NCBI GenBank assembly: GCA_047606065.1
Contig: JASGEU010000133.1
Coordinates: forward strand, 28,905 to 92,904
Origin: Mobilitalea sp.
GTDB lineage: Bacteria > Bacillota > Clostridia > Lachnospirales > Lachnospiraceae
Reading direction: 5' to 3'
DNA length: 64,000 nucleotides
Positions 3,786 through 48,118 of this stretch are shown here, in pieces (the first letter of the stretch is position 1; each line of letters opens with the position of its first letter). The position numbers and the translations under genes were made by a program. The notes below the pieces were generated by a model, which worked only from the letters and a program-made list of their open reading frames with translations, made no database searches and was not told where the DNA came from.

Positions 3786-3827
3786 TTTATTCATGACAAG
3801 TGAAACGACTTGTCGTTTCATCTTGTT
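3786..3827 (-). repeat. REP-like palindromic repeat, copy 1
   Basis: Exact reverse complement of 19559-19600 (42/42). Confidence 0.85.
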
Positions 3828-3867
3828 GGATTATATTAAGTTTGAATTTATAATCAGAATTTAAGTA

Positions 3868-5658
3868 TTAGATATCTAGTTTAAAATTAGATATCTCTCG
3901 CTTTAAGAAATCTGAATTACTCTTAGAAATCGCTGCCTGCTGCGCAACTTCTGCAGATAAATTTGTAATATCTGATATCTTTATGGCAATATCTCCTGTT
4001 CCTGTTGCTCCTTCCGTAGATGCTTGAGCCACCTCATTCACTGCTGTCATTATATTTTCAATACCCGCCAAAAGTTCTTCTGCAGTAGCACTGAAATCAG
4101 TAATCAGTTCATCCATATATACAGCATCATTGCTATAAGCTTCCGCAACACTTGAGATATTAGAGAAGCTTTCTGAAACATCCTTAGACACAAAGTCTAA
4201 AAGAGCCTTTGAACTGTCCGACAGATTGGTCATAGCCTCTGTGACATCCTCGGTAACCTCTTGAATTCGAGTAACTGCATCCCTGGATTGTGATGCTAAG
4301 GCACTTATCTCATCTGCTACCACCGCAAATCCTTTACCGCTTTCTCCTGCCCTCGCTGCTTCAATAGAAGCATTAAGCGCCAATAATCTAGTCTTTGCAG
4401 TTATTTTCATAATTGTTTCAGTCAGAACATTAATTTGAGATACTACCTGTGCTTGTTCCAATGCCTGCTCCAGTTTCCTCTCTATCTCATCCCCAATTTG
4501 CTCTGCTTTTTCTTGGGATAAATGAATTTCCTTTTTGTTGCTCTTTGCTCGTTTGCTAATCTCAATTACCTGAAGCGCTGCTTCCTGTGACTTGGTTGCA
4601 ATTGACTTGGTTGCCACTTCAATCTCTGCTGAAGTTGTTGACATCACCTGTGCAGATGCGGCAGTTTCCTGCATTCCTGCTGCCAGCTCCTGTGAGGTAG
4701 CTGCCAGATCCTCTATATTTGAATTTAATACTTTAATATTGCTTGTAATGTGTCCAACAACATCAACAATTCCATCCGCTGCTGATTTTGAACTTCCAAC
4801 CAAGTGTGCTACCGAGCCCTTCATAACTTCTATTTCTTGTGCTAATACTCCAAAATCGTCTTTTCTGGCGAGATATCGCTCGGGTAGCTGCACTGTAAAA
4901 TCACCTGTTGCAAGTGTTTTAAAATATGTACTGATTGCTTTAAAGGAACGATTTAAGTTCAGTGTAAGGTAGATAGTAACAAAGCCTGCTAATACCAGCG
5001 ATATTGTAAATATCACGACAAAATCTATAATATTACTCCTGGCTTCTTTCTCTTCCTGTTCAGCAATAGAAGCAATATAGGTATCAATGTAATCCGTATA
5101 ATTTCCTGTACCAATTACCCATTCAAAGGGTTCAAAGGCTAAACTGTATCCTCTCTTTGGAGAAGCTTCGGTCTCATCAGCCTTAGGAAACCAATAATCG
5201 GTATAGCCGCCCCCCTTACGTCCTGCCTCAATAATTGCTCGAATCATCTGAAAGCCATATTCATCTTCCTGGTCTAAGCGATTCTTTCCTTCAATGGTAT
5301 CCTTACCTAAGCAAACTATATTTAGACCCTCATAGGTATCAATCCAAAAATATCCTTCTTCACCGTAACGCATTTCTCTGACAGAATCAGCTGCAATTTT
5401 CTTCGCTTCTTCCAGAGTATATTCACCATTTTCATATTTGATATAAATAGCATTTATCAATGATACGACACTTTCTACCTGCTCTTTTATATTATTATCA
5501 AAATCTGTACGTATACTTTCTTCTAGTACATTTAAATTCCTATCCATCGTCTTTGATTGATTCATTATGGACAATCCAACCATTAACGACGCAACCACTA
5601 GTAAAACCACTGCAAGTAAAATAACTTTTGTTCTCACCTTGTAATTATTTAATCTCAT
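3868..5658 (-). CDS. Methyl-accepting chemotaxis protein with single Cache sensor domain
   Basis: TM-Cache ([22 protein letters not shown])-TM-HAMP-MCP signalling domain ([29 protein letters not shown]). Confidence 0.9.
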
Positions 5659-5824
5659 ATTGTCTCACCCGTTTCTAATTTCCTCTCAATCATAGGATCT
5701 CCTAAAATACTGCATAAAATTACACTATTATTCTACAGTAATTCGTACAAAATTACAAGATATGTAAACAAAAGTTTCTTGTCTAAGTAAGTATTTCTCC
5801 ATTTAAAATTTATCTGTCTTTATC

Positions 5825-6394
5825 CTACACTACAGTCGCTCTAAGCTTAGGTGGCGTAGTATGAAGAAAGTAATTCGTCTTATTATCCTCTAAAATCCAA
5901 GTTTCCAAATCTTCTTTTGGTATAATTAAAGGCATTCGATCATGAATTCCTTCCATAGATTCGTTGGCATTGGTAGTAAGAATAACATAGCGCATTTCGC
6001 CCTTATAAATAGAATATAAGCCCGCCATATAAAGTGCATTCGTATCCTCAAGTCGAAAGAGATGCTTTCTCTTCTGCTTGTCCCATTCATAAAATCCAGT
6101 GGAGGGAATGATACATCGACGGGTTAGCAGACTGTCACGAAAAGTTTTCTTTTCAAATGCCGTCTCTGATCTGGCATTGATAATTACACCTTTCCCATCA
6201 AATTTAGGAAACCCCCAGGCACATAACATGGGCTTAACAGACTTAGCTTCCTTAACAATAATCGGAGCAAGATCAGTGGGAAATACTTCTCCGATTTTCA
6301 CTAGTGAATTCTGATATTTTTCGTTCAGCTTCTGAAAAATTTCCATGATCTCATCATCATCTTCTTCAAACATAATGTTATATCTGCCACACAT
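5825..6394 (-). CDS. SOS response-associated peptidase (SRAP/YedK/HMCES family abasic-site crosslinker)
   Basis: N-terminal MCGRY, INARSET, GFYEW, IHDRMPLI motifs. Confidence 0.9.
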   Translation of the reverse strand: MCGRYNIMFEEDDDEIMEIFQKLNEKYQNSLVKIGEVFPTDLAPIIVKEAKSVKPMLCAWGFPKFDGKGVIINARSETAFEKKTFRDSLLTRRCIIPSTGFYEWDKQKRKHLFRLEDTNALYMAGLYSIYKGEMRYVILTTNANESMEGIHDRMPLIIPKEDLETWILEDNKTNYFLHTTPPKLRATVV

Positions 6395-6670
6395 CTTATA
6401 TCCTCCCTTTCATAACTGTTAATAAGCACACAAAACATTTTATTATAAATATATTCACCGGTTTTATAAGCAAGCTCATTATTTACGCTTTTTTATACAA
6501 TATTATATTCAAGCTTTTTATCCCATCTTTATATTTAATCGTTTTATTCAAGCCTCATATCCAATCCTTATATGCCAGTTCTTTATTCTTTCCTACCCAA
6601 AGCTTATCATATTATTTATGATATGTAATCATCTAATCCATACTTCAATTATATTAACGATACCTGAAGA

Positions 6671-6784
6671 GAATATTAGTGCATCTATGATCAGATGGCG
6701 CAGACCGGCACCGAATGGTTGCAATTTTTTCAGCAACCATCGGTGGTAAGGCAAGTCCAGATGATTATAGATGCACTAATATTC
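6671..6784 (+). ncRNA. Candidate structured RNA or MITE (about 115 nt)
   Basis: 23-bp terminal stem with one G-U pair, internal bubble, and apical CACCGA(A)TGGTTGC/GCAACCATCGGTG stem. Confidence 0.4.
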
Positions 6785-6803
6785 TTTAGTAATCTTAATC
6801 ATT

Positions 6804-8204
6804 TTAATCTTCAAAGCTTATCTTATTCCAAGCCTCTTCATTAATCACCACATCATATTCTTCTGACCATTCCGAAAATATATCCATAAACATCTCGTTA
6901 CGACGCTCTCCAATAATTCTTTCTTTTACTTGAATTGTTGCATCTTCATTATAATCCGAGACACAGTAGATGATATGCCAGCCATTCTCAGTTGCAATAA
7001 TATCACTTACTTCACCGGTCTTTAACTGAAAAGCAGCTTGTTCAAATATATCTCCAAATTCCTTTGGTGCTTCTCCTTTTCCAAAGGTGTACTCAATGGT
7101 ATCTGCTTCTGAATTTGCTTCTGCTAAAGCAAGGAAATCTGTGGTTTCCTTTGCTTGCCCTGCCAGATTTTGAATTTTTTCATAAGCATCTGCCTTCTCT
7201 TCCTCTGAAAGCGTAACCTTATTGCCCTTCAAATCAAAATGACTGCTGTAAACCACGATATCCTGAACCGTAATCTGTTTTGCAGCTTCTTCCGCCACAT
7301 TATTATCTACATTAATTGTTTCCATTTCAAACATTTTACTTGCCAAAAGATTATCTGCATAAACCTGTGTTAAGAGCTCCTTTGTAATAAGATACTGGTC
7401 GATCTCTTCTTGCGTAAGACTCTCAAAATGATCTTTGGCATAAGAAGCTGCTTCTGCCAGCTCTTCCTCCGTTAAATTAATTTCTTTTTTAAGTGCTTCT
7501 GCCTTAATAATCTTTAATTCTGTCAGTTGGTGTATCACCTCTTCCTTCAGCATACTGCCGAAGGTATCTCCATTTCCAAGAATATCTGCTTGCCAGATGC
7601 CCTTCCCATATTCCTTCTCATACTTTTCCTGTGCCAGCATAAGGTATACCATTGCCTCATTATAATAAACTCTGGTATCTCCAATACTAGCCATAAGATT
7701 TCCGGAGCTAACTGAGGTATCGTCTTCCTCCTGCTTAGGAGCAGCACTCTTATAATACGAAATCTCAATGACAGTTTCTTGTGCACTATCGTAAGTAATG
7801 TATAATTCATTTTCATTCCTAAGGTAAGAATAAGTAACCGTAGACTGATCTGCACTGAATTTCTTTGCAATTTCTGTGCCGAAGTTATCAACTAACAAAC
7901 CATCTGCTTCTTCTTTCTTCATTCCGATGGTAACACCAAATACCTTATATTTTTCTGCCTTCTCAAGCAAGGTAACTGCTGATACCTCTTTTCCGGAGGT
8001 CATAACTTGAATGACATCCTCCTTCTGGTATACACCGCTGCTTAACTCGCTTAAATCAATTCCTGACTTTCGCTCAAAGGTAGACACACTCTTCCCAATA
8101 TAATTTGTAAGCTCATTGCGCTCCGTACCGCCTTTACAAGCAGCCAGCAGCATTATGATTAATAAGATTGGTATCATGCGTACCAACTTCCATCCTCTTT
8201 TCAT
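6804..8204 (-). CDS. PrsA/SurA-like peptidyl-prolyl isomerase lipoprotein with an extra N-terminal domain
   Basis: Lipobox LLAAC; SurA-N-like helical region; parvulin motif FEQAAFQLKTGEVSDIIATENGWHII. Confidence 0.8.
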   Translation of the reverse strand: MKRGWKLVRMIPILLIIMLLAACKGGTERNELTNYIGKSVSTFERKSGIDLSELSSGVYQKEDVIQVMTSGKEVSAVTLLEKAEKYKVFGVTIGMKKEEADGLLVDNFGTEIAKKFSADQSTVTYSYLRNENELYITYDSAQETVIEISYYKSAAPKQEEDDTSVSSGNLMASIGDTRVYYNEAMVYLMLAQEKYEKEYGKGIWQADILGNGDTFGSMLKEEVIHQLTELKIIKAEALKKEINLTEEELAEAASYAKDHFESLTQEEIDQYLITKELLTQVYADNLLASKMFEMETINVDNNVAEEAAKQITVQDIVVYSSHFDLKGNKVTLSEEEKADAYEKIQNLAGQAKETTDFLALAEANSEADTIEYTFGKGEAPKEFGDIFEQAAFQLKTGEVSDIIATENGWHIIYCVSDYNEDATIQVKERIIGERRNEMFMDIFSEWSEEYDVVINEEAWNKISFED

Positions 8205-8348
8205 GCCTGTCCCCTTTCCAGCTGTATTTTACATCAGCTTCTATATAATAAATCCCGAATTTATTGACCCATTTATTCCATTTTCACAATTTAACCCAAT
8301 TATATTATTAAATACTTAAAGTCTACCCAGATTTATAACCTTAACCGC

Positions 8349-18314: not shown

Positions 18315-18362
18315 TTTAATGGCTTTTGAAACCAATTCTTTAAATTCATGGAGGGACATTTC

Positions 18363-19559
18363 ATGTCAAAGCACGAGAAAATTGTTGAAACAATTCCTGT
18401 AGGACCTCTTGGTATTATTGCACTGGAAAGCAGTAAATCATTAGGACAACGCGTGAATGACTATTTAGTTGAATGGCGCGATGCCAGAGAGAGCGAACAT
18501 AAAGGTACGATTGCTTTTTCCGGCTATCAAAGAGATTCATTTTTATTAAAGGCTTGCTGCCCTAGATTTGGCACTGGCGAGGCAAAAGGTCAAATCAAAG
18601 AATCTGTTAGAGGTGCTGATTTGTATTTGCTGGTAGATGTAACAAATTACAGCTTAACCTATACTGTATCAGGACATCTTAATCATATGTCACCCGACGA
18701 CCATTATCAGGATTTAAAAAGAATTATTGCCGCAGTTGGTGGAAAAGCTAGAAGAATAACAGTTATTATGCCTTATCTATATGAAGGCAGACAACATAGA
18801 AGAAGCTCAAGAGAGTCTCTTGACTGTGCTCTTGCTCTTCAGGAATTGACCCAAATGGGTGTTGACAGTATCATTACCTTTGATGCTCATGATCCAAGAG
18901 TTCAAAATGCCATCCCTCTATCCAGCCTTGAAACTGTAGCTCCAAATTATCAGTTTATTAAAGCACTTCTTCATAATGTACCTGATCTTAAGCTTGACGC
19001 TGAACATATGATGATCATCAGCCCGGATGAAGGTGGAATGTCAAGAGCAGTTTATTATGCTAACGTACTGGGTCTTGATATGGGTATGTTCTATAAGAGA
19101 CGTGACTTCACTAAGATTGTGAATGGTCGTAATCCAATTGTTGCCCATGAGTTCTTAGGCACTGATATCGAAGGAAAAGATGTTTTAATCGTTGATGATA
19201 TGATTTCTTCCGGCGAAAGCGTATTGGATGTTGCTCATGAATTAAAGAAAAGAAATGCAGGCAGAATATTTGTTGCTTCCACCTTTGGCTTATTCACAAA
19301 TGGATTTGCTAAGATTGATGAAGCATACGAAAGCGGTCTGATTCACGGTATTCTTACTACAAATCTTATCTATCAGACACCTGAGCTTTTAACTAAGCCT
19401 TGGTATATCAATGTAGATATGAGCAAGTACGTTGCTTTAATTATTGACACATTAAATCATGATGATAGCATTAGTGGCCTTCTTAATCCTGTTGCAAGAA
19501 TTCAAAATATTATGAAAGAGTACAAGCAGGGCCAATATGCAATAGAATCTGCAGAATAA
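18363..19559 (+). CDS. prs: Ribose-phosphate pyrophosphokinase
   Basis: FGTGE..ESVRGAD, MPYLYEGRQH, DAHDPRVQ, SPDEGG, LIVDDMISSGES. Confidence 0.93.
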   Translation: MSKHEKIVETIPVGPLGIIALESSKSLGQRVNDYLVEWRDARESEHKGTIAFSGYQRDSFLLKACCPRFGTGEAKGQIKESVRGADLYLLVDVTNYSLTYTVSGHLNHMSPDDHYQDLKRIIAAVGGKARRITVIMPYLYEGRQHRRSSRESLDCALALQELTQMGVDSIITFDAHDPRVQNAIPLSSLETVAPNYQFIKALLHNVPDLKLDAEHMMIISPDEGGMSRAVYYANVLGLDMGMFYKRRDFTKIVNGRNPIVAHEFLGTDIEGKDVLIVDDMISSGESVLDVAHELKKRNAGRIFVASTFGLFTNGFAKIDEAYESGLIHGILTTNLIYQTPELLTKPWYINVDMSKYVALIIDTLNHDDSISGLLNPVARIQNIMKEYKQGQYAIESAE

Positions 19560-19600
19560 ACAAGATGAAACGACAAGTCGTTTCACTTGTCATGAATAAA
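19559..19600 (+). repeat. REP-like palindromic repeat, copy 2 (reference copy)
   Basis: AACAAGATGAAACGACAAGTCGTTTCACTTGTCATGAATAAA directly after the prs stop. Confidence 0.85.
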
Positions 19601-19624: not shown

Positions 19625-19685
19625 GAAAGAAGGTTAGCTTCTATGTACACCATCTATCATTGTACATAGAAGTTAACCTTCTTTC
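19625..19685. terminator. Long, probably bidirectional terminator between prs and the HD gene
   Basis: 25-bp stem with one G-U pair; A-rich and T-rich flanks. Confidence 0.75.
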
Positions 19686-19763
19686 TTTCAGTAAAATAAA
19701 GCCTGTGATATAGAAATTAAAGCAACGTTTCCATTTAGTTATTCTAATTTTAAACTTTATATT

Positions 19764-21692
19764 TTAAATGAGAACTTTTTTCATAACTTCAATACCAATT
19801 CGTTTACCAATGGCACTTAATACTTCTTCTCTTTTTTCCTTTAAAACTCCAGCCTCATCCTTTGCTAAAATGTAAATATAGAAAACAGGAAGATAATCAG
19901 AGTCAAGCTGAAGAATATCAGCAATCCCGCTAATATCTTTCAAAGTACAAATTGCTCCCTTGTGGTTATAAAAATAGATGGGGGAATCTAATCCAATTGA
20001 AATTCGTTTAAATAAAGTAACTGAATCATAGATCTTAAGGTTGTCATCTATATGATTTGCTTCATCTCTAACAATTTCACTGACCTTCTGCTCAAAACTT
20101 TCGATTTTCATTTCCTTCCAATGTCTCGAAATAAAAGATAAAACAAACCCGGAAGAATTTTTTGTCACATTCTCTAACATTTGATAAATTAACTCTGTGG
20201 ATTTTTCCTGACCCGGCAAGTCATTTCCCTTCGCCAGGAATGCTTTTATCTTATCTTTACGTTTTATTATTTCAAGTTTAACAGCATCATCAATAATTTT
20301 AAAATTCTCACTACGTTTTATTAAAGAATGATATCGTTTGCTACTACGCAGTAATTCCGCCAGTCTTTGTGACAACACGAAATCTCTGGTTCCTTCCATA
20401 ATCTCTTTATTATGATAATACTCTGTATAATAAATCTGTCTAAGTACTGTCGTCAACCAGGAATCATTCCATTGTGAAAGTGCATTTGCTTTTATTGCTG
20501 ACTTTTTGTCACCCAATGGGAACCAGAGTCCTGAAATATCAAATGGAATTAATATTTCATTGTCATGCTGCTTCTCCAACCCTTCTTCCTTCAAATATTT
20601 TATCACCAGATCTTTTACGATTCCTTCGAGAATATAATCAGATTGAATAACTCTATGATGATAAACTATATCTTTATAGCTATTATATCTACGTTTAACA
20701 AAATCCTCCACAGAACTAACTGCTTTTAACGGAACACAAAATAAAATATCTCCATTTTTCACAAACAACTGCATATCATTAATAATTCTGCTATATTCGA
20801 TTTTCCCCGAATCTTTTCCCGAATTAATTACATCTCTTGTCACATAATCCAAACGGTCTCCATCTAAGCTGGAATCAATAATTCTATGAAGATATCTGAA
20901 GGCTCCCTCTTCAGCAAAAATTCTTTTTACACTTTCCAATACAAGCAGTTCAAATAAATTCTCATTGTAATTCGAAGCATCTTCTGAAATTGCTGCAATA
21001 ATTTTGCTTAAAATACCCTCACTAATCTCGTCACCCATTTGTTCATGCAATTTCTTATTGCCCTCGAAATATTTTGACATGATATCAACAAATTCTTTTG
21101 CATTTTCCTTTTGAATATCTGCTTTCTCTTTATATTCCATATAAACATCTTTTAAGGCAAACTCTACAATATGACTAAACGGAGGATGTCCGATATCATG
21201 CAGCAAAGCTGCCGCCCGAATAGATTGAATGAGGACAAGATGTATAATTTTATAATGGTCTGGGATATTGTTCGGTATCAAAGAATGTCTCAACTTATCC
21301 AGTTCAATCCACGGCATCTCCTCTGGCAGCCTGCCACCTAATTTTTCTGCACATATCTCAATCTGCTGTCCTAAGCTATCTAAAATATTACCATATTCTT
21401 TATCAAATATATCAAAGAATTCCATTAACGTCGAATCTGTTGTATTCAGTAACGATTGGAAAAACATATCAGAGCAAAGTTTCATAGTTCCAATGGAGTG
21501 TTCAAATCGTTTGGTTCGATTGGTTGGAAACGTAAGATATACCGTAGAATTTTGATATACATCATGAAGACGATTAAATCCAATGGTTGAAACAATTCTT
21601 CTTTCATATTCCGTTAATGAAATCAATCCATGAATGGAATCATTCAAATAAATGCCATTTTTCAAGTTAAGCCTCCTATTGTTTTTATCCAT
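19764..21692 (-). CDS. HD-domain phosphohydrolase, SAMHD1/dNTP-triphosphohydrolase-like
   Basis: DSIHG..FNRLHDVYQ..TFP...RFEHSIG, LLHDIGHPPFSH, DGDRLDYVTRD, VYHHRV. Confidence 0.8.
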   Translation of the reverse strand: MDKNNRRLNLKNGIYLNDSIHGLISLTEYERRIVSTIGFNRLHDVYQNSTVYLTFPTNRTKRFEHSIGTMKLCSDMFFQSLLNTTDSTLMEFFDIFDKEYGNILDSLGQQIEICAEKLGGRLPEEMPWIELDKLRHSLIPNNIPDHYKIIHLVLIQSIRAAALLHDIGHPPFSHIVEFALKDVYMEYKEKADIQKENAKEFVDIMSKYFEGNKKLHEQMGDEISEGILSKIIAAISEDASNYNENLFELLVLESVKRIFAEEGAFRYLHRIIDSSLDGDRLDYVTRDVINSGKDSGKIEYSRIINDMQLFVKNGDILFCVPLKAVSSVEDFVKRRYNSYKDIVYHHRVIQSDYILEGIVKDLVIKYLKEEGLEKQHDNEILIPFDISGLWFPLGDKKSAIKANALSQWNDSWLTTVLRQIYYTEYYHNKEIMEGTRDFVLSQRLAELLRSSKRYHSLIKRSENFKIIDDAVKLEIIKRKDKIKAFLAKGNDLPGQEKSTELIYQMLENVTKNSSGFVLSFISRHWKEMKIESFEQKVSEIVRDEANHIDDNLKIYDSVTLFKRISIGLDSPIYFYNHKGAICTLKDISGIADILQLDSDYLPVFYIYILAKDEAGVLKEKREEVLSAIGKRIGIEVMKKVLI

Positions 21693-21750
21693 ACTAAAGT
21701 ATCTCCATCATAATTCTACTAATTCAGAATTTCTTCCTGACCTTCTTCAA

Positions 21751-21790
21751 TAAGATGATACGCCAAGTCGTTTCACTGGTCATGAATTAA
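21751..21790 (+). repeat. REP-like repeat, copy 3, overlapping the PBP stop codon
   Basis: 35/40 identity to copy 2. Confidence 0.8.
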
Positions 21791-24184
21791 ATCTTCCTCA
21801 CTTAAGCCCTCTCCCTCAGAAGCGCCTTCCCCCTCTAGAAGTGTATCCCCAGAGGTTTCTTCGTTCTCAAGATCGTCAATAGTTTCTGGATTGGTTTCTT
21901 CCTCCTGTATTTCTTCACCTTCTGTGCTATTATCTTCCGAATCGATTTCTTCTGTATCAAGTCCTTCTTCCGAATTATCCTCCTGATAATTATCCTCTTC
22001 CTCCAAACTATCCTCTGGATTTGTATCACTATCTGGTATTTCTGTTTCGATTCCTTCCTCATTGTTGCTTATTTCTTCTTCCGGAATCTCCACTTCTACT
22101 TCATCCTCATTTTCCGTGATACCTTCTTCTGCAGTTTCCTCTTCTATAGTTTCACTTTGCTCTTCCTGGGGTCTCCAATCATAGAATAAGAAGTTCTTTG
22201 TCATAGAATTTGTATGTATCTGCTCCATAAAGTTATGCCAGATACCGCCTGGATATGACGCTCCTCTTAAATCTGACAAGGCTTTGGGCAAATCATATCC
22301 AACCCATACACTGGTAGTATAATACGGTGTATATCCAACAAACCATCCATCCTTCTGATCGTTTGTTGTACCAGTTTTACCTGCGCTTACTGTATTTGAA
22401 AGACCAATCCCCTTTCCTGTACCTTTTTTCATTACACCTGTTAAGGCCTCTGTCATAATCCTTGCTGCTTCTGTCTTATAAATCTGTTTCTCATCAACTG
22501 TTTCGCCAACAACCTCTTCTCCCTGTGAATCCATAATTCTTATAATACAAGTTGGCTCACGATAAAAACCATCATTCTCAATTGCCGCATACGCAGCCGC
22601 CATTTCAACAGAGCTTGCCCCAACAGTTAGTCCGCCAAGTGCGGCTGCAGGAATATAATCACTCTCTGATATTTTTGAAAAATTCATTCTAAGTAAATAC
22701 TCTAAACCTATTTGTGGTGTCAATTCCACGAAAAGTTCCCAGGCAACTACATTTTTTGATGCTTCAATTGCCCTCTGTAATTTTATTTCACCTGCATACT
22801 GTTTATCAGCATTCTTAGGTCCATCCTTACTATATACATCTTCAACAAGGCTATCCGGAGTATATCCTCGTTCAAAGATCGGAGTATAAACAATAAGGGG
22901 CTTAATGGCACTGCCTGGCTGGCGAAAACTCTGGTAAGCCCGGTTCAGGGTATACCCTCCAAGGTCCTGTTCTCTGCCGCCAACAATTGCAACCACTCTA
23001 CCCGTATCATTGTCGATACAGACAGAAGCTGCCTGCAATTTATACACACCCTCTTCATTCACCTCTGTAAATTTTGCCAGAGCATTATCTACTGCTTCTT
23101 GTAATAACTGCTGCTTTTCCAAATCAATGGAGGTATAAATGCGATATCCTTTACTATACAAATCCTTTTGACAGCTATAATATAATTCATCATATGCTGC
23201 ATTGTAGGCTTCTTTATCAGCTTCATCTTCAAACTTATTACGAAACTCAAATCCCTGCTTTTTCATTAAGGCTCGAATTGCACTGTAATAGGTATAGGTT
23301 TCAACATAGTTCTGCTTCTCTAGTTTTGTTCGATTAAGCTCTATCTCCTCCTTAAGAGCCAATTGATAATCCTTTTGATTAATGATACCTGCTTCATACA
23401 TTTGATCCAGGATACGATCTCTGCGCTTCAGGGTGTTATTCATATTTGTTACCGGATTATAAAGATTTGGATTGTTAGGTATCGAACATAAAAACACCAG
23501 CTGTGACATGCTAAGAGAGGACACTCCCTCACCAAAATATCCTTTCGCTGCCGCCTGAATTCCATAGTAACCGTTGGCAAAATAGATTTCATTAAAATAA
23601 AATTCTAAAATATCTGATTTACTATATTTTTTCTCTAATTCCTGTGCTATAAAGATCTCTTCCAGCTTTCTTTCATAAGTAACCTTATGAGTTAAAAATA
23701 CATTACGGGCCAGCTGCTGGGTAATTGTACTGGCTCCCTGGGTAATTTCACCCTTGTGCTTGATCAAAGCTATGGCTGCTCGGATATTTGCCAAGTAATC
23801 CACTCCGTCATGTTGTAGAAAATTGCGGTCTTCCGATACCAACATAGCATCAATTACAGTGGCTGGAATTTCTTTATAGGAAAGATAGTAAACATCCTTT
23901 TCCGTTCTTAGCGTAGAAATTAAGTTTCCTTGTACGTCATAGACTAAACTGGTCTGGTCCTCTTTAAAGGTATCATTGGAAGAAGCACTGACCTTCTGCT
24001 TTGCTTCTGCCTGAAGTTTTAAAATCATCTTACCATAGACCTGATAGAAGTAGAAAAGTCCTGCCGCTATTGCCATAAGAAAGCATAGAACCATAATTTG
24101 CAGGACTAGCCTGCCTTTGCTGCCAGCTTTTTTTCTTGTATTCTTTTCCTGTTTTTTCATACTTTTCTTTTTTTGTCTGGGCAT
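21773..24184 (-). CDS. Class A (bifunctional) penicillin-binding protein with an acidic C-terminal tail
   Basis: Transglycosylase motifs EDRNF, GASTITQQLARN, RKLEE; transpeptidase motifs SAIK, SKN, KTGT. Confidence 0.93.
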   Translation of the reverse strand: MPRQKKKSMKKQEKNTRKKAGSKGRLVLQIMVLCFLMAIAAGLFYFYQVYGKMILKLQAEAKQKVSASSNDTFKEDQTSLVYDVQGNLISTLRTEKDVYYLSYKEIPATVIDAMLVSEDRNFLQHDGVDYLANIRAAIALIKHKGEITQGASTITQQLARNVFLTHKVTYERKLEEIFIAQELEKKYSKSDILEFYFNEIYFANGYYGIQAAAKGYFGEGVSSLSMSQLVFLCSIPNNPNLYNPVTNMNNTLKRRDRILDQMYEAGIINQKDYQLALKEEIELNRTKLEKQNYVETYTYYSAIRALMKKQGFEFRNKFEDEADKEAYNAAYDELYYSCQKDLYSKGYRIYTSIDLEKQQLLQEAVDNALAKFTEVNEEGVYKLQAASVCIDNDTGRVVAIVGGREQDLGGYTLNRAYQSFRQPGSAIKPLIVYTPIFERGYTPDSLVEDVYSKDGPKNADKQYAGEIKLQRAIEASKNVVAWELFVELTPQIGLEYLLRMNFSKISESDYIPAAALGGLTVGASSVEMAAAYAAIENDGFYREPTCIIRIMDSQGEEVVGETVDEKQIYKTEAARIMTEALTGVMKKGTGKGIGLSNTVSAGKTGTTNDQKDGWFVGYTPYYTTSVWVGYDLPKALSDLRGASYPGGIWHNFMEQIHTNSMTKNFLFYDWRPQEEQSETIEEETAEEGITENEDEVEVEIPEEEISNNEEGIETEIPDSDTNPEDSLEEEDNYQEDNSEEGLDTEEIDSEDNSTEGEEIQEEETNPETIDDLENEETSGDTLLEGEGASEGEGLSEEDLIHDQ

Positions 24185-28675: not shown

Positions 28676-28679
28676 GGGA

Positions 28680-33245: not shown

Positions 33246-33533
33246 ATGAAAAAGAAATTGATTGTCTCTGTAATTTTAGCTGCCTTTATCATCTTGTGGT
33301 TTTCTGATTTCTTACCAAAACAAGTTGTTAAAGTGGTAGCAAGTAATTATATCTCTAAACAAGAAGACGGTGATAACTATAAATTTAAACTCGTGGAATA
33401 CTCCCCTGCACATGATAGTTATATGGTATATTTTTATGACACAGAGAATTCAGATGCAGAATTAAGAAATCTCGGAGTATATTATCGGTGGTTTCCCTTT
33501 AAGGTTTACTATGATTCAGTGTTTCCAGGATAA
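33246..33533 (+). CDS. Small membrane-anchored hypothetical protein
   Basis: RBS AAGGAG, N-terminal hydrophobic segment, followed by a repeat copy and a terminator. Confidence 0.7.
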   Translation: MKKKLIVSVILAAFIILWFSDFLPKQVVKVVASNYISKQEDGDNYKFKLVEYSPAHDSYMVYFYDTENSDAELRNLGVYYRWFPFKVYYDSVFPG

Positions 33534-33569
33534 ATGAAATAACAGGTCGTTTCACTTAACATGAAAAAG
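33530..33569 (+). repeat. REP-like repeat, copy 4 (degenerate)
   Basis: 30/40 identity to copy 2; the GTCGTTTCACTT..CATGAA core is retained. Confidence 0.6.
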
Positions 33570-33603
33570 GATTGGCGTATTTTTACACACCAATCCTTTT
33601 TCA
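33562..33603. terminator. Bidirectional terminator
   Basis: TGAAAAAGGATTGG..CCAATCCTTTTTCA stem between convergent genes. Confidence 0.7.
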
Positions 33604-40440: not shown

Positions 40441-40451
40441 CTTTAATCTCC

Positions 40452-40934
40452 TTATTCTTCTAAACTTATTTGTAATTTTTTCAGTGTTCGATACATTTTG
40501 CTTTTTACTGTATTTAACTTTTCACCCGTCATGTCTGCTATTTCTTCCAACGTATACTCTTCGTAAAATTTTAAAATTATAATTGTCTTATCCGTAGCAT
40601 CCAAGTTATCTATCGCTTTCTCCAAATCATAATCTACATAATGGTCCGTCTGTGAAATATCTATAGCGGATATGTCATAGGAGTCTTTTTTGTGCTTCTT
40701 AATAAAAGCCAATGCTTCGTTAATCATAATTCGATAGATCCAGGTGTTTGCATAATCAGGATTTTTCAAGGTTTCACTTTTAAGGATTGCTTTGTAGGCG
40801 CCTTCTTGAACTATGTCCATAGCATCCGTCTCATTATGCACATAACTGTAAGCCAATCGATAATATTTGTCATAATTCCTAATTAAGTAATTCTCAATTA
40901 GGCTCTCCATAATATTCTTCATTTTAATATTCAT
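40452..40934 (-). CDS. ECF sigma factor (SigV-like)
   Basis: YYRLAYSYV.NE.DAMDIVQE..TWIYRIMIN..TVKSKMYR; directly upstream of the RsiV-like gene. Confidence 0.85.
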   Translation of the reverse strand: MNIKMKNIMESLIENYLIRNYDKYYRLAYSYVHNETDAMDIVQEGAYKAILKSETLKNPDYANTWIYRIMINEALAFIKKHKKDSYDISAIDISQTDHYVDYDLEKAIDNLDATDKTIIILKFYEEYTLEEIADMTGEKLNTVKSKMYRTLKKLQISLEE

Positions 40935-42293: not shown

Positions 42294-42448
42294 CACTAAC
42301 ATCCTCCTTAAATTATTATCCAACTACTATTGATTATAACATATAAAAATATAATTTCCAGCATATCCCTCCGTCACTGAATTACTATGATAACTTTTTA
42401 CTACTACCCATGATAGAATTGTATTAAAAATAACTTCTTGCACGGACC

Positions 42449-42477
42449 TGAAACTTTTTTCACTGAATTATAGTATT
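42449..42477 (+). promoter_or_regulatory. Putative ECF autoregulatory promoter
   Basis: TGAAAC followed by a T-tract, N16 spacer, then TAGTATT, upstream of the ECF gene. Confidence 0.4.
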
Positions 42478-42499
42478 GATAGTTGAAAGGAGGGTATGA

Positions 42500-43051
42500 A
42501 TGGAAGATTGTACAATCATAAAAAAAATGAAGCTAAATAAAGAGAAAGCTCTTGAGGCTTTGATGCAACGCTACACTTCTTATGTTGTTACTATAATTAT
42601 GAGAATTGGCGGCCAACTTTTATCCGCCCAGGATGTGGAGGAAATTGCATCAGATGTATTTTATGCCGTATGGAAAAGGCGAGAAAGCTTAATTGAGGCA
42701 GATAGTCTAAAACCCTACATTGCACAGATAGCAAGAAATATGACAAAAACACGATTGACTCAAACCCGAGAAGAAGAACCTTTGGAAGAGGACATTCTTG
42801 TCCTCATTTCTAACGATATTGATGAACAGCTCATACAGAAGGAACAATTGGAATTTCTACGTGAAACCATTTTACGGTTTGAATATCCTGATAAGGATAT
42901 CTTACTGGCTTATTATTTTTGGAATTATAAATTAGCTGATATTGCAAAGTTGTTTGAATTGCCGCTCTCCACGATTAAATCAAAACTTTATCGTGGTCGT
43001 AGCGAGCTTGTAAAAAGATTTGAAAAAGGAGGTTATCATTATGAAGCATAA
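42500..43051 (+). CDS. ECF sigma factor
   Basis: Region 2 (DVEEIASDVF..W..LKPYIAQIARN) and region 4 (STIKSKLYRGR). Confidence 0.85.
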   Translation: MEDCTIIKKMKLNKEKALEALMQRYTSYVVTIIMRIGGQLLSAQDVEEIASDVFYAVWKRRESLIEADSLKPYIAQIARNMTKTRLTQTREEEPLEEDILVLISNDIDEQLIQKEQLEFLRETILRFEYPDKDILLAYYFWNYKLADIAKLFELPLSTIKSKLYRGRSELVKRFEKGGYHYEA

Positions 43052-44129
43052 AATTAATTTGCACCAATTATTTGTTAAACTGGATCTGGAAGACATGCCT
43101 TTAGAAGACAGCACCTCTCCCTCCCACCAGATAAATATGAAACGCATACGCCAATTAACTATGGAAAAAGTGCAAAAAGATAAGAAATCAATATTACCCT
43201 TTCAAAGGCACCTATTTAAAGCATCTCTTGCAGCCTGTATTATATTTTGCATCAGCGGTGTAACCGTATTTGCTGCGACCAATGAAACCGTGCGCCAAAC
43301 CATCAGTGAATTACTTGGTATTTCACAAACTGAAATACTTACAGTGGGCAAAAGTATAGAAAGTAAAGATTATAAGCTAACTGTTGACGAAATTGTTTGT
43401 GATTCCTACACCGGTATTGTAACAATATCCGTGGAAGCTTTAAGTTCAAATGCTAAAGAAACCTTTATAACTGATAATATTATTGAGAAATTAGGCCATC
43501 TGGGTTCTGTTGGTTACGGTCTTAGAGAACTGGAAGAATTACAGACGGAATATACCAGATGTTTTTCCTTTTCCTTTAATATAGGGAATGTACGACATAA
43601 AGCTGATGGATTAAATTTTTCTATGGAAGGTATTTCGAAAGAAATAAAAATACCAATCACACAGACCTTAGAATTAACTGAATTAGATGTTAACATACCA
43701 ACAGCGGAGGGTTATTCTGTGTCGTACCAGAAGCTATGCTATTCGGAACTTGGCTTTACTCTATTGGGTAAAATAGAAAATCAGGATTTTAATATTGAAA
43801 ATTTCTTAATATTGTTTGAGTCTATGGATGGCAGTAACAGTGAATTTTATCAGTACCATGCAGAACAGGATAATTTGATAAACGATCCCAGCGTGAACAC
43901 CGCTCAAACACAGGCTAGCAGCAAAGGCATTGAAACAACTGTCAGTAGCCCTACTGAAGAGTCCCCCAAAGACAATTCAATTATCGAATTTGATGACAAA
44001 TGGTTTTCAGGAGGTGGGGAATCTACTGATTCGGATAAAGTAACTTCTATCTTCAGCTTTTCTAAAAAAATGGATTGGTCTACGGTGAAATCTATTACGA
44101 TTAATGGAACAACGATCAGAGTTAATTAG
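43041..44129 (+). CDS. Anti-sigma factor (DUF4179-like), single TM
   Basis: Overlaps the sigma stop; TM ending VFAA; extracytoplasmic beta-rich domain. Confidence 0.65.
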   Translation: MKHKINLHQLFVKLDLEDMPLEDSTSPSHQINMKRIRQLTMEKVQKDKKSILPFQRHLFKASLAACIIFCISGVTVFAATNETVRQTISELLGISQTEILTVGKSIESKDYKLTVDEIVCDSYTGIVTISVEALSSNAKETFITDNIIEKLGHLGSVGYGLRELEELQTEYTRCFSFSFNIGNVRHKADGLNFSMEGISKEIKIPITQTLELTELDVNIPTAEGYSVSYQKLCYSELGFTLLGKIENQDFNIENFLILFESMDGSNSEFYQYHAEQDNLINDPSVNTAQTQASSKGIETTVSSPTEESPKDNSIIEFDDKWFSGGGESTDSDKVTSIFSFSKKMDWSTVKSITINGTTIRVN

Positions 44130-44449
44130 TATGTACCTAATCTTGTATTAAAACAGAATCTTATGAGCCTTTATCTCTCCTTGAGATAAGGGCTTTTTAT
44201 CATAAAAATCTGGATTATTCGTCCGATTCTTTAAAGAGATATGCCTTACTTTTTATTGTTACTGCAAGAAATCAGATTTTATATTGAATAACTCACCATT
44301 CTGATTTAGTATATATATGATGATTTTCTAAGTTATGGTAAAATTATTTCCAGTTTATATAAAGCAGAGAAAGCATAATGTAATTATTTTATGCAGAAAT
44401 ATTTTACTAACACTTAAATTTATGCTTTTCGTAACAATGGAGGATTACT

Positions 44450-46159
44450 ATGTCTTACAAAGATCTTCATAAATTTATAGAAGAGTTAGAGCAGCACGGT
44501 GAGCTAAAGCGAATAAGTACGGAGGTTTCCTCTGATCTTGAAATTACAGAGATTACAGATCGAATATCCAAAGCTCATGGACCAGCTTTGTTATTTGAAA
44601 AGGTACGTGGTTCCAAGTATCCTGTACTAATTAACGCAATGGGCAGTTATAAGCGTATGAGTATGGGGCTGGGTGTTAAGGAGTTGGACGAGCTTGGTGC
44701 TTTGATAACTGACTACTTAAATTTAGGCAACTACTTATCCATAAAGAAATTAATAAAAAGTATACCTCGTTTATTACGACTATTGTATGTATTCCCTTCC
44801 AAATCAAGAAGAAAAGGGAAGTGTCAAGAGGTCATAGAACGAGAGGTGGATTTGGACACCCTTCCTGTTCTACAATGCTGGCCGGAGGATGCAGGTAAAT
44901 TCGTAACTCTGCCCCTGGTCTTTACAAAGGATATCAAAACCAAGAGACAGAACGTAGGAATGTATCGACTGCAAATTCTTAATAAGACCAGTACCGGTAT
45001 GCACTGGCATAAGCATAAGGATGGTTCTGAAATCTATAAGGGCTATCAGGAGTCAGGTAAGAGAATGCCCGTATCAGTAGCACTGGGCTGTGATCCTGCA
45101 ATTACCTATTCCTCTACCGCACCCCTTCCCCCTATGCTGGATGAAATGATGTTAGCAGGCTGGTTGCGTAAATCCAGAGTCAAAATGGTAAAATGTATCA
45201 CCAATGATATCTATGTGCCTGCAAATGCTGAATTCATTTTAGAAGGTTATGTGGACCCCACAGAGGAACTGGTATTGGAAGGTCCCTTTGGCGATCACAC
45301 CGGATATTATTCTCTGGCTGATTACTATCCAAGATTTCACGTCACCTGTATTACCCATAGAAAAGATGCTATTTATCCTGCTACCGTAGTTGGAAAACCT
45401 CCCATGGAGGATTGTTATATGGCAAAGGCAACCGAGCGAATCTTCCTACCCATGCTTCGTATGATAATCCCTGAATTAGTGGATATGAACTTACCGCTTG
45501 AGGGAGTCTTCCATAACTGCGCGATTGTATCCATTAAGACGAAATACCCCGGTGCTGCTATTAAGACAATGAACAGTATCTGGGGCATGGGGCAAATGAT
45601 GTACACTAAATTGATCATTGTCGTGGATGACTCTGTTAATGTACAGGATATCAGGCAAGTGCGTGAAGCTGTACTTTCACATGTAATTGCGGACAAAAGC
45701 CTCGTAATAGCAGAAGGTCCTTTGGACGCTCTGGATCATTCCTCCAATGAAGCCTTATATGGTTACCGCCTTGGGGTGGATGCAACCAGCAAAAACACTT
45801 TGCAAAAAGAAAACACAGTAACTAACACCTATCATATTATGTCCATATGCAAGGAACGTCCCGGACAAGGGAAAGAGGTTTTATCCGACTATATGGATAC
45901 TCATTCTGATAAGTTTGTGATTGCCGTTGACGAAGAGGTTAATCCTTTGGACTTGTCTACGGTAATGTGGAAGGTCTTTAATAATATAGATGCAAAGAGA
46001 GATCTCCTTATCCTTGATGGCAAAATCGGTATTGACGCTACTAAGAAATGGCGAGAAGAAGGCATTACCAGGGACTGGCCAAACGACATCGAAATGTCAC
46101 AGGAGATAAAGCAGCAGGTTAACGAAAGATGGAGGCAATATGGTATTGACATTGACTAA
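44450..46159 (+). CDS. UbiD-family prFMN-dependent decarboxylase, menaquinone (MqnL-like) subtype
   Basis: NVGMYRLQ, MHWHKHKDG, EGPFGDHTGYY, ATVVGKPPMED, duplicated C-terminal domain ending GIDATKKW..G..R.WP..I.M. Confidence 0.85.
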   Translation: MSYKDLHKFIEELEQHGELKRISTEVSSDLEITEITDRISKAHGPALLFEKVRGSKYPVLINAMGSYKRMSMGLGVKELDELGALITDYLNLGNYLSIKKLIKSIPRLLRLLYVFPSKSRRKGKCQEVIEREVDLDTLPVLQCWPEDAGKFVTLPLVFTKDIKTKRQNVGMYRLQILNKTSTGMHWHKHKDGSEIYKGYQESGKRMPVSVALGCDPAITYSSTAPLPPMLDEMMLAGWLRKSRVKMVKCITNDIYVPANAEFILEGYVDPTEELVLEGPFGDHTGYYSLADYYPRFHVTCITHRKDAIYPATVVGKPPMEDCYMAKATERIFLPMLRMIIPELVDMNLPLEGVFHNCAIVSIKTKYPGAAIKTMNSIWGMGQMMYTKLIIVVDDSVNVQDIRQVREAVLSHVIADKSLVIAEGPLDALDHSSNEALYGYRLGVDATSKNTLQKENTVTNTYHIMSICKERPGQGKEVLSDYMDTHSDKFVIAVDEEVNPLDLSTVMWKVFNNIDAKRDLLILDGKIGIDATKKWREEGITRDWPNDIEMSQEIKQQVNERWRQYGIDID

Positions 46160-47018
46160 ATTTATTCACAAAATCATGGATTATGGAAAGCTGGTTATGT
46201 TCTCCCATACCATATTTTCATTAAGTTTTGCTCTCTTGTCTATGCTGTTGGCAGCAGGAGGGCTTCCAAAGTTAGAGACCTTATTTTGGATTATGATCTG
46301 TCTTTTAGGTGCCAGAACTGGTGCCAATGCAATTAATCGTGTTATTGATGCGGAAATAGATGCTAAGAATGCGAGAACCGCAAACCGCCAGATACCCAAA
46401 GGTGAGTTTAAGAAAAAGGAAGTCCTTGTCTTTACTGCCTTCTGTTTTCTGCTCATGCTGGTTGGTGCATATCAATTAAATATGATTTGTTTCGTCCTAT
46501 CACCTGTTGCGTTATTTTTAATGATTATCTACTCTTATTGCAAGCGCTTTACGTTCCTTTGCCACTTGGTCTTAGGTATTACATGTGCCTGTGCGCCTGT
46601 TGGAGCCTGGCTTGCTGTAACTGGCAAATTAAGCCTTCTTCCTCTGTTTATGGGTGCAGCCAATACTCTGTGGGTTGCAGGCTTTGATATCATTTATGGG
46701 TCACAGGATTATGACTTTGATAAAGCAAATCATCTGCATTCCATACCGGTCAAATTCGGTGTTAAGGATGCCCTAAGAATCGCTATGCTATTTCATATTA
46801 TAACTGTACTTTGTCTCGTAGTAATTGGTTTACTGGCAGCCCAGCTGGGAGTAATCTACCTGATAGGAATTCTGATTATTTGCTGTTTATTTGTAGTTGA
46901 ATACCGTTTGGTTTCGCCCACAAATCTAACAAATGTTAATATTGCCTCCTATAGTATTAACCAGTTAATCAGCATTGTTCTACTAATCAGCGGTTTACTT
47001 GATGCTTTTATCTTATAA
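46140..47018 (+). CDS. UbiA-family aromatic prenyltransferase (MqnP-like)
   Basis: FSHTIFSL.FA, GARTGANAINRVIDAEIDAKNART.NR.IP, YSYCKRF, GFDIIYG.QD..FD. Confidence 0.88.
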   Translation: MVLTLTKFIHKIMDYGKLVMFSHTIFSLSFALLSMLLAAGGLPKLETLFWIMICLLGARTGANAINRVIDAEIDAKNARTANRQIPKGEFKKKEVLVFTAFCFLLMLVGAYQLNMICFVLSPVALFLMIIYSYCKRFTFLCHLVLGITCACAPVGAWLAVTGKLSLLPLFMGAANTLWVAGFDIIYGSQDYDFDKANHLHSIPVKFGVKDALRIAMLFHIITVLCLVVIGLLAAQLGVIYLIGILIICCLFVVEYRLVSPTNLTNVNIASYSINQLISIVLLISGLLDAFIL

Positions 47019-47056
47019 ATAATAATGTAATAATAATGAATGAGGTGTATACTACA

Positions 47057-48001
47057 ATGTTAAAAAAACTACAATTGCTTTTTCTATTTATCTTACTTGC
47101 TTTATTTTTAATCGGTTGCAAGGGGAAAGATGCTCAAACTCTTTCCGAAAAAACTGTTATTCGTATTGGAATGATGTCCTCTTACGATGTTATTCCTTAT
47201 GTTATGATTAATGAACTTGGTCTTGCCGATCAGTATCAGCTTGATTTACAGCTCGAGGTATTTACTTCTGCCAAAGACCGAGATGCGGCACTTCTTGCCG
47301 GAGAACTTGATGGGGTGCTGACGGATTACATCGGCGTATGCATGTATCAGAATGCTGATTTTGATGTAAGAATTACGGGTATTACCGATGGAGACTATGT
47401 TCTGGTAGCCGGCAAAAACAGCGGAATTACCTCTATTAATGATATTGCAGGGCGTAGCATTGCCATATCACAGAATACCTTAATTGATTACACCCTGGAT
47501 CAAATCCTCGAAAAGAATTCTATGGAAAGCGATGCTGTCGTTAAGGAAATCGTACCACGTATCCCGGACAGAGTAGAATTACTTCGAAACGACCAAATTG
47601 ATCTTGGACTTTTACCAGAACCCTTTGCTTCTATTGCTTTAAATGATGGTGCCGTATACTTAGGCAGTGCCAACGATATTAATCTGTATCCTGCTGTATC
47701 TGCTTTCACCAAAGAATTTTTGGATTTTAAATCTGAAGCTGTTAAGAATTTATACAAGGCTTATAATGAGGCTGTTGAATACCTTAACAAAACCGATATC
47801 TCCAACTATGAGGATACTGTAATTAAGACAGTAGGTTACCCTGCCGAGATGAAGGGTCAGATAACGATAGAGCCTTTCCGCACCAGTGAGCTCCCTCCGA
47901 TGGAGGATGTAGCTTCCGCCATCACCTGGGCAAGTAATAAGGAGTTATGCAGCTCTGACTTAACCTATGATAATCTCGTATTTGATGTATATTCTAAATA
48001 A
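47057..48001 (+). CDS. ABC transporter substrate-binding lipoprotein (NMT1/SsuA-like fold)
   Basis: Lipobox LIGC; F.SAKDRDAALLAGELDG; LPEPFAS. Confidence 0.8.
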   Translation: MLKKLQLLFLFILLALFLIGCKGKDAQTLSEKTVIRIGMMSSYDVIPYVMINELGLADQYQLDLQLEVFTSAKDRDAALLAGELDGVLTDYIGVCMYQNADFDVRITGITDGDYVLVAGKNSGITSINDIAGRSIAISQNTLIDYTLDQILEKNSMESDAVVKEIVPRIPDRVELLRNDQIDLGLLPEPFASIALNDGAVYLGSANDINLYPAVSAFTKEFLDFKSEAVKNLYKAYNEAVEYLNKTDISNYEDTVIKTVGYPAEMKGQITIEPFRTSELPPMEDVASAITWASNKELCSSDLTYDNLVFDVYSK

Positions 48002-48078
48002 TTTGTAACTGTTCAGAACCAAGCAGAATATTTAATAATTTAGCCCTGAAAGCTTGCTTTCTAAGGATAATTTTTATA

Positions 48079-48118
48079 CAAGGCGAAACGACAATTCGTT
48101 TCACTTTTCATGAGTATT
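48079..48118 (+). repeat. REP-like repeat, copy 5
   Basis: 33/40 identity to copy 2. Confidence 0.75.

Follow-up and report, generated by a model that had tools for sequence, protein, structure and literature searches.

Repetitive extragenic palindromes (REPs) are defined by a conserved tetranucleotide located 5' of a short hairpin's foot, and the described tags are GT[AG]G, CGTC and CnGA (PMC6006769, PMC3733652). REPs are thought to depend on TnpA_REP enzymes related to those of the IS200/IS605 type (PMC6006769). Insertion sequences (ISs) of the IS200/IS605 family are excised precisely as a circle of single-stranded DNA (ssDNA) and insert 3' of a short target without duplicating it, with a preference for the lagging-strand template (PMC5027513). 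In a survey of tagged REPs the Proteobacteria, Cyanobacteria, Chloroflexi and PVC phyla appear along with others, and the Firmicutes are not named (PMC3733652); the IS200-type subclass of TnpA is well represented in Clostridia (PMC6006769). Here we describe a palindromic element of about 36 nt, five copies of which lie in a 64-kb stretch of DNA (the window) from Mobilitalea sp., a member of the Lachnospiraceae (contig JASGEU010000133.1, positions 28,905 to 92,904). The element has no coding capacity and is very probably a mobile, non-autonomous palindrome. The reading that we favor, with a probability of roughly 0.55, is that it represents a low-copy family of REP-like mobile hairpins that would be moved as ssDNA by an enzyme acting in trans.

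All five copies reported by a first-pass annotation of the window are present in numbers beyond chance (coordinates in Table 1). An exact 40-mer, CAAGATGAAACGACAAGTCGTTTCACTTGTCATGAATAAA, occurs at 3786-3825 on the reverse strand and at 19561-19600 on the forward strand, with none expected in shuffled sequence; when up to three mismatches were allowed, the hairpin core was found also at 21757, 33536 and 48085, giving a total of five matches versus 0.03 expected. Copies 1 and 2 are identical and copies 3 to 5 have decayed. The identity of 42 out of 42 letters noted previously for copies 1 and 2 holds over 40 of 40, the remaining letters being flanking A/T, and the conserved 3' tail holds as CATGAA(T), beyond which the flank varies. 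A covariance model built from 38 copies assigned the window copies scores of 75.5, 71.8, 52.1, 51.4 and 42.7 bits, with E values between 2.5e-12 and 5.6e-6; it found no sixth copy in the window.

To define the occurrence of the family, one genome for each of 185,579 species was scanned with a degenerate pattern fitting all five window copies. The 33 canonical matches were all located in three uncultured 'Bacillota bacterium' metagenome-assembled genomes (MAGs), OH_SBrB_32 (12 copies), OH_SBB_49 (11) and OH_HFB_53 (10). In the 254 kb surrounding these matches the covariance model detected about eight additional, diverged copies; in 135 kb of syntenic DNA of the next-closest genera it detected none. 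Where the window is syntenic with these MAGs the two are 88-90% identical, from which it follows that the window stands for a third species within this small clade. In a metagenome collection the hairpin core alone gave 17 matches, which are attributed to chance because none of them carries the tail. No matches were obtained in viral contigs, phage records or plasmid records, and in no public sequencing run were more than 9% of the words sampled from this region present. The family is therefore real, clade-restricted and low in copy number, occurring in a few uncultured Lachnospiraceae-like bacteria of gut or soil. The first-pass annotation had regarded a mere handful of copies genome-wide as an argument against a mobile family; the numbers come close to this, with 10-12 canonical copies per genome and probably a few dozen in total when decayed ones are included.

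The conserved unit of about 37 nt, ACAAG(A)TGAAACGAC-AA-GTCGTTTCA-CTTGT-CATGAA, ends sharply on both sides. Its predicted fold is the one proposed at the outset, a 13-bp stem with one bulged base, and includes a CAAG loop; the energy is -13.7 kcal/mol as RNA and about -10.5 kcal/mol as ssDNA (-10.5 to -10.6), with z of about -4.6 to -5.1. CATG (columns 35-38) is invariant in the copy alignment. Because the invariance of the 3' arm was partly built into the search pattern, 42 model hits that included diverged copies were re-aligned. In this alignment 93.8% of the cells are paired and five pairs show two-sided changes, as opposed to 1.3 in shuffles; examples of compensation are GCAAG/CTTGC in locus L014 and ATAAC/GTTAT in L012. 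The bulged base is missing in three copies (L014, L015, L031). Read on the reverse strand the element consists of 5'-CATG, an imperfect palindrome of 13-14 bp with a bulged T, and T(T)-3', and it is in this orientation that the bulged hairpin with its adjacent conserved motif fits the structural definition of REPs (PMC6006769). No described family accounts for it: a scan of the window against Rfam 15 gave no match at the gathering thresholds, and a permissive scan around copy 2 returned as its sole match the neighboring terminator hairpin, which is spurious. A variant hairpin in L001 (1974-2016), AGGAAGT(C)GAAAGC-AA-GCTTTCACTTCCT-ATG, scored 22 bits against the model. It has the same architecture (AAGTGAAA...TTTCACTT, the bulge in the same place, AA loop, ATG tail) and a different inner stem, and may belong to a sister subfamily recognized by the same factor.

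Other identities of the element were considered and rejected. It is not an intrinsic terminator: the forward strand is followed by CAUGAAUAAA and the reverse strand by 2-3 U only, and the locus-specific terminators are separate. A small open reading frame (ORF) in either orientation lacks a ribosome-binding site and its frame is not conserved past the core. A promoter would have weak -35-like hexamers only and no conserved -10. Against an operator of a transcription-factor regulon speak the unrelated neighboring genes, the excessive uniformity over the 40 nt and the bulge, by which dyad symmetry is lost. Among the genes next to the copies are those for MCP, prs, PBP1, DsbA, AraC, Rrf2, an S41 peptidase and ribonucleotide reductase (RNR), and further ones for PstS, RsfS, L27/Obg, Asp23 and YtfJ. 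To our knowledge, none of parS, Ter, NBS, cre, CIRCE, Rex, LexA and NrdR boxes fits by half-site or spacing, a comparison that provides leads only.

Evidence for mobility comes from filled and empty sites at syntenic loci of the sister species, which were obtained through prs homologs. Copy 3 is shared by the window and species A (L059-L062, which correspond essentially to OH_SBrB_32) and is missing from species B (OH_HFB_53; L051, L052). The difference is an exact 36-nt indel, since mismatches reach their minimum at size 36 only; one placement of the block is 21753-21788. The site lies within the last 11 codons of PBP1, on the opposite strand. In the filled genomes PBP1 ends with ...LIHD(Q/N) and a stop codon supplied by the element (LIHDQ in the window). 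When the 36 nt were deleted from the window in silico, PBP1 ended with ...GEGLSEEDFIEEGQEEILN and a stop (...FIEEGQEEILN), matching the ...GEGLIDDNFIKEGQEEILN and stop (...FIKEGQEEILN) of the empty genome. The event is polarized as an insertion because the deletion restores the conserved PBP1 C-terminus. The site shows no duplication and a microhomology of 1 nt at most. As the window is slightly closer to species A (90.1% identity) than to species B (88.3%), a single gain of copy 3 in the common ancestor suffices. The last 11 codons of PBP1 were replaced by the insertion, and the displaced tail can still be read downstream as an uninterrupted frame, in the window as well as in species A (EGQEGILN and stop in L059).

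Copy 2 is sequence-perfect and occurs in the window lineage only; at this position both sister species contain a short, unrelated AT-rich stretch after the prs stop, and the locus differs by a net +36 nt between anchors. The terminator hairpin downstream of copy 2 is kept in the sister species that lack the copy. As judged from these alignments, copy 2 is a young insertion of the window lineage. The perfect sequence of this young copy, compared with the 5-7 changes in the older, shared copy 3, fits decay after insertion. Filled and empty orthologous sites, by which the first-pass annotation had proposed that a mobile repeat could be recognized, are thus on hand, copy 3 being clean and copy 2 compatible. 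Moreover, for the majority of the canonical copies in one MAG, the matching site of the other MAGs contains no canonical copy. From the comparison of the genomes it can be concluded that the element inserts at new chromosomal sites and that, at the one clean site, it did so as a 36-nt unit without duplication. The mobile-repeat interpretation (REP- or MITE-like, the latter denoting miniature inverted-repeat transposable elements) is likewise borne out by the near-identity of the canonical copies, their mostly species-specific positions and the lack of Rfam, phage and plasmid matches.

L030 contains a copy that is missing from the window, but inside a 70-nt indel. Two sites around the RNR gene of L018 were compared with L063 as filled/empty pairs that might sharpen the boundaries of the unit; they were rejected as untidy: at one an intergenic stretch had been replaced, and at the other about 125 nt of composite sequence had been inserted. 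Upstream of this B12-dependent RNR gene (L018 100-305 compared with L063 5850-6000) are NrdR-box-like palindromes (ACAATATATTGTGT), which in OH_SBrB_32 are parted from the ribosome-binding site by the insertion of about 125 nt, in which a second repeat (repeat B, see below) and the main element are accompanied by extra sequence.

Insertion took place at AT-rich sites that read approximately ...TWATT^ (reverse strand) or TAA^AATAA (forward strand), with a flank consensus of TAA^ ... ^AATWAA. The triplets that flank columns 4-40 are identical in 12 of 36 independent copies versus 6.0 expected (p ~0.001), and three of the matching pairs deviate from the consensus (TAT/TAT, TAC/TAC, TTA/TTA). Both this excess and the AT-rich target preference would be explained if the element were a MITE moved by a DDE transposase, that is, a double-stranded element of 37 nt (ACAAG...CATGAA) whose 14-bp arms serve as terminal inverted repeats and which generates a 3-bp TWA duplication. 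Arguing against this possibility is the only clean site, a 36-nt and not a 40-nt indel with at most 1 nt of microhomology, and the many perfect, presumably young copies without matching triplets (CCA/TTA, GCA/TAT, AAA/TTA). Past the hairpin the element is asymmetric, CATGAA being confined to a single side; its length of 36-40 bp falls short of that of described MITEs, and no parent IS with these ends was seen. A DDE-type origin is therefore considered improbable.

The one constant feature of the family is its polar adjacency to a strong hairpin. After orthologs were collapsed, 37 independent copies remained. The 55 nt past the CATGAA tail have a mean folding energy of -16.1 kcal/mol, those on the opposite side -4.8 kcal/mol. 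A hairpin of -10 kcal/mol or stronger is found within 55 nt on the tail side of 30 of the 37 copies and on the other side of 4 (sign test p=1e-7), against a background of 14% of random intergenic 55-mers from the same loci. The median gap between CATG and the stem is 7 nt. The adjacent hairpins differ at every locus and are usually terminators, about half of them bidirectional. In the window, separate strong hairpins follow copies 1, 2 and 4, as had been noted, and the repeat itself is not the terminator; the hairpin beside copy 1 has an ortholog in L015 with a free energy of -25.9 kcal/mol. An A-run, which corresponds to the terminator U-run on the other strand, nearly always precedes the adjacent hairpin, so that in the direction of the terminator-owning gene the typical layout is gene, terminator hairpin, TTTTWATT, CATG-hairpin. 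About 80% of the copies are inserted where the T/A-run of a strong hairpin, already in place and usually an intrinsic terminator, has its outer end, and the CATG end always faces this hairpin.

Nearly all copies are singletons. Exceptions are a tail-to-tail pair in L012 and a tandem pair in L010. In L012 (6070-6212) the two copies lie one on each side of a single bidirectional terminator and resemble the doublets known as bacterial interspersed mosaic elements (BIMEs) or REPINs; three copies are located there within 1.6 kb around a dsbA-like gene, the third (7621-7667) overlapping the 3' end of an Rrf2-family regulator gene. In L010 (5115-5194) a canonical copy begins immediately past the ...CATAA tail of a decayed copy. 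Since the new copy abuts the old tail, it is suggested that the tail of the element may itself serve as a target. Repeat B, a separate small repeat with the core GAAAGCTTGCTTTC within an AT-rich palindrome GAATATTTAATAAATTAGC...TAATTTATTAAATATTC, adjoins copies of the main element, in either orientation, at three loci that are not orthologous, those of L018 and L019 among them, which places the element again beside hairpin-forming DNA. Apart from the window, repeat B was found in L008 (~4085-4135), L018 (~165-205), L001 (1863) and L019, here downstream of the copy at 346-392.

Gene orientation does not follow the same rule. In the window four copies lie behind a co-oriented ORF (those for MCP, prs, a 95-aa protein and an ABC substrate-binding protein), in agreement with the first-pass annotation, but family-wide the upstream gene is co-oriented with 23 copies and opposite to 20. 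The forward strand of the element is on the C-rich strand in 28 and on the G-rich strand in 9 of the independent copies (p=0.0026), which indicates that the element is mostly antisense to local transcription. The proposal that the repeat binds a protein at mRNA 3' ends is unlikely in view of the approximately 50:50 gene orientation and the location of the forward strand on the non-coding, C-rich strand (28:9).

Constraint was measured by comparing the core differences at orthologous copies with the number expected at the rate of the flanks. No core differences were found between L009 and L033 in the copy of the rpmA-obg operon (4.7 expected) and between L026 and L029 (2.5 expected); L027 and L010 differ at 2 core positions (6.6 expected), copy 3 of L059 and the window at 6 (4.8 expected) and L009b and L033b at 7 (2.5 expected). 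Constraint is heterogeneous and there is no consistent purifying selection; the fully conserved copies had been selected by a pattern that required conservation. Most copies decay at a roughly neutral rate after insertion, and a few copies may have been co-opted by the host. The best candidate for co-option, on the sequence evidence, is the copy in the rpmA (L27)-obg operon (L009 6774-6820, L017 7223-7269, L033 6228-6274), which might act, e.g., as an mRNA processing or stability site. It is co-oriented, lacks an adjacent hairpin and is identical in the three MAGs, the flanks of which differ by 13-15%.

It could be supposed that the motif as a whole is maintained by the host, as a stabilizer or processing site of mRNA 3' ends, a terminator helper or insulator, or a protein-binding site, and that rare new copies are kept by selection. 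The strikingly precise and polar adjacency to terminators is consistent with such a role, as are the identity of the rpmA-obg copy in three species despite about 5 expected substitutions, the unchanged L026/L029 copy and the known effects of REPs on mRNA stability and termination (PMC6006769). On the other hand, the gene orientation is mixed and the element mostly antisense to local transcription, one copy inside a coding region truncates a PBP, and several orthologous copies decay at or above the rate of their flanks. The neighboring genes share no functional theme, the sister species manage without copies 2 and 3, no Rfam family is known, and the conserved copies were selected by the conservation-requiring pattern. 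We consider it improbable that host selection explains the family.

The search for a mobilizing enzyme, such as a RAYT (REP-associated tyrosine transposase), covered the window and the neighborhoods of the copies. An all-against-all comparison of 761 ORFs from all loci yielded only orthologs and generic paralogs, and no family recurred near the copies. Pfam scans of 40 neighboring ORFs identified housekeeping functions only. The RAYT/TnpA gene flanked by copies that might have been anticipated was not found in the approximately 46 copy neighborhoods, and between non-orthologous loci no sequence was conserved beyond about 40 nt. Spread without an enzyme, by template switching or short-patch gene conversion that copies the 36 nt from another locus at stalled forks near hairpins via AT-rich microhomology (AAYAA / AATAAA), would agree with the transposase not being found in the window or the copy neighborhoods, with the resemblance of both characterized targets (GAATAA^ATAA, TTTAATA^AAAT) to the sequences that bracket the unit, with insertion next to fork-stalling hairpins and with the untidy replacement of neighboring sequence at several sites. 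It is nevertheless very improbable. Accidental events would hardly produce 30 or more independent insertions that are full-length, sharply bounded and of fixed polarity toward the hairpin. The remaining palindromes of these genomes, terminators included, are not dispersed likewise, and the restriction of the family to a single clade points to a factor specific to that clade.

In the model that we prefer, REP-like hairpins moved as ssDNA, the folded hairpin would be cut out and rejoined ('peel and paste') by an HUH/Y1-type enzyme acting in trans and encoded elsewhere in the genome. The preferred landing place would be a folded terminator with an exposed T-tract on the lagging-strand template. 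It may be speculated that folding of the terminator leaves the T-tract single-stranded at the foot of the hairpin and that the two candidate sites of cleavage share a terminal TRTT^ when read on the reverse strand (...TWATT^CATG in the flank, ...CTTGTT^ at the element end). Effects on the host look incidental: an extra hairpin in the 3' untranslated region, an occasional change of a gene end (PBP1) and the possible processing or stability site in rpmA-obg. The specific single-strand HUH route is tentative and somewhat less probable than its alternatives taken together. That the single 36-nt hairpin is the complete and currently active mobile unit, landed by an ssDNA enzyme on a terminator with its T-tract, is rather unlikely.

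Several observations weigh against this model. No gene for a Y1/HUH or other transposase is present in the window or within about 4 kb of any copy. The IS200/IS605 elements have two different hairpinned ends, the left end (LE) and the right end (RE), tens of nt from the tips, whereas this element is one 36-nt hairpin and no parent IS was seen. Only the copy 3 site is clean; L030 and the two L018 sites are messy replacements, and the copy 2 locus needs a separate 4-nt indel nearby. Even at copy 3 the similarity of the target, TTTAATA^AAAT, to the ends of the element allows the boundaries of the block to slide over about 7 nt. The excess of identical triplets hints at a 3-bp duplication, which the HUH mechanism does not make, but it may instead reflect a preference for TWA-rich targets. 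The strand bias is confounded with the orientation of the terminators, which follows that of the genes. Finally, the perfect conservation of some orthologous copies, where about 5 changes are expected, is not predicted by pure selfish drift.

Table 1. Positions of the repeat copies and the hairpins and repeat next to them in the 64-kb window
Feature	Position	Strand	Context
Copy 1, canonical core ACAAGATGAAACGACAAGTCGTTTCACTTGTCATGAA	3790-3826	-	41 nt past the stop of the MCP gene; tail toward the terminator at 3745-3785
Terminator hairpin, locus-specific, CAGCTTAGGACAATAAC...GTTATTGTCCTAAGCTG, then T-run	3745-3785	-	abuts the tail of copy 1; outside the repeat
Copy 2, canonical core	19560-19596	+	begins immediately behind the TAA stop of prs
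Long bidirectional terminator hairpin	19625-19688	+	between prs (+) and the HD-domain gene (-)
Copy 3, decayed core	21750-21786	+	antisense within the 3' end of the PBP1 gene (21773-24184, -)
Copy 4, most decayed (42.7 bits)	33529-33565	+	overlaps the stop of a 95-aa ORF; tail enters the hairpin at 33565-33601
Bidirectional terminator hairpin AAAAAGGATTGG...CCAATCCTTTTT	33565-33601	+	abuts copy 4
Copy 5, decayed core	48078-48114	+	between the ABC substrate-binding-protein gene and an ATPase gene
Repeat B, separate small palindromic repeat, core GAAAGCTTGCTTTC	48020-48075		directly 5' of copy 5

The window has a G+C content of 36% and its genes include mfd, pth, spoVG, murC-like and dnaB/dnaI-like genes, prs and the genes for PBP1, MCP and agrB. 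By its homologs of prs and RNR, the window groups with Lachnospiraceae-like Bacillota close to Herbinix and Mobilitalea. Copy 1 is also present in OH_HFB_53 (L015), and the orthologs of copy 5 in L001 and L008 are better preserved than the window copy. The agrB homolog (2920-3510) adjoins the terminator of copy 1. For prs (18348-19559) the start codon is probably ATG 18363 and not the first ATG at 18348, because the close homologs all have 398 aa; with the 398-aa reading the cluster member P0122 shares 100% identity. A gene for a 642-aa HD-domain protein (19764-21692, -) lies between prs and PBP1 in all three species of the clade and is absent from this position in the next-closest genera (L054-L058). 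Three genes for ECF-type sigma factors are located within 12 kb (40452-40934, 42500-43051 and 52407-52916).

The spread of REP-like hairpins is still argued mostly from indirect evidence in Proteobacteria, and this element provides a low-copy, apparently young family in another phylum. It offers a clean, duplication-free insertion of 36 nt that is polarized by a restored reading frame and a simple positional rule, the tail facing a terminator hairpin about 7 nt from its stem. If the 36-nt unit is active, it would be among the smallest mobile DNAs known and would represent a REP-type system in Bacillota; it would also furnish direct comparative evidence that REP singletons, not doublets alone, transpose, and a new rule of target selection, hairpin plus T-tract, by which the element would tag the distal foot of intrinsic terminators. 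Should the enzyme be found, the system is small enough to be reconstituted with oligonucleotides, which would allow folded ssDNA terminators to be tested as landing pads. For genome annotation it is of importance that these repeats are not terminators, small RNAs or operators and that they can alter gene ends, as in the truncated tail of PBP1. Differences between strains of these uncultured Lachnospiraceae-like bacteria are marked by the repeats as well.

Comparison with the known systems reveals a mixture of shared and deviating features. As in REPs, which range from 20 to 65 nt, the element is a short imperfect palindrome with a bulge, in which a conserved tetranucleotide of the reverse strand adjoins the hairpin foot on its 5' side. 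Its location is extragenic and mostly at gene 3' ends, its sequence is species- or clade-specific, and close relatives are polymorphic for its presence or absence. Its tag, CATG, is none of those described for REPs, and its host belongs to Bacillota, a phylum not among the tagged-REP phyla of one survey (PMC3733652). In contrast to the tens to hundreds or more REPs per genome, canonical copies number 10-12, and they are nearly all singletons whereas REPs often form inverted doublets. REPs flank tnpA_REP within about 1 kb (REPtron), and no such gene was flanked by copies of the element in the sampled DNA. The REP definition does not include a polar abutment to terminator T-tracts. In this respect the element recalls class C group II introns, which home just after intrinsic terminator hairpins and are ribozymes of about 0.7-2 kb, usually with a reverse transcriptase; the similarity concerns only the choice of target, i.e. 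landing beyond the terminator T-tract with fixed polarity, and the element has no intron features. Bacterial MITEs such as Correia, RUP and bcr1 measure 50-500 bp, generate a constant target duplication and have a recognizable parent IS. Like them the element is non-coding, dispersed and intergenic, has inverted-repeat arms, prefers AT-rich targets and would be mobilized in trans, but it is only 36 nt long and made no duplication at the clean site. With IS200/IS605 members such as IS608 and ISDra2 it shares a hairpin with an extrahelical base, which in those elements serves as the recognition element, and its one clean insertion occurred without target duplication; those elements carry or derive from tnpA/tnpB, and no tnpA was found near the copies studied here. 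The element lacks several features of REPs as well as the two hairpinned ends of IS200/IS605 members, but it works in the manner of a REP or an IS200-type hairpin.

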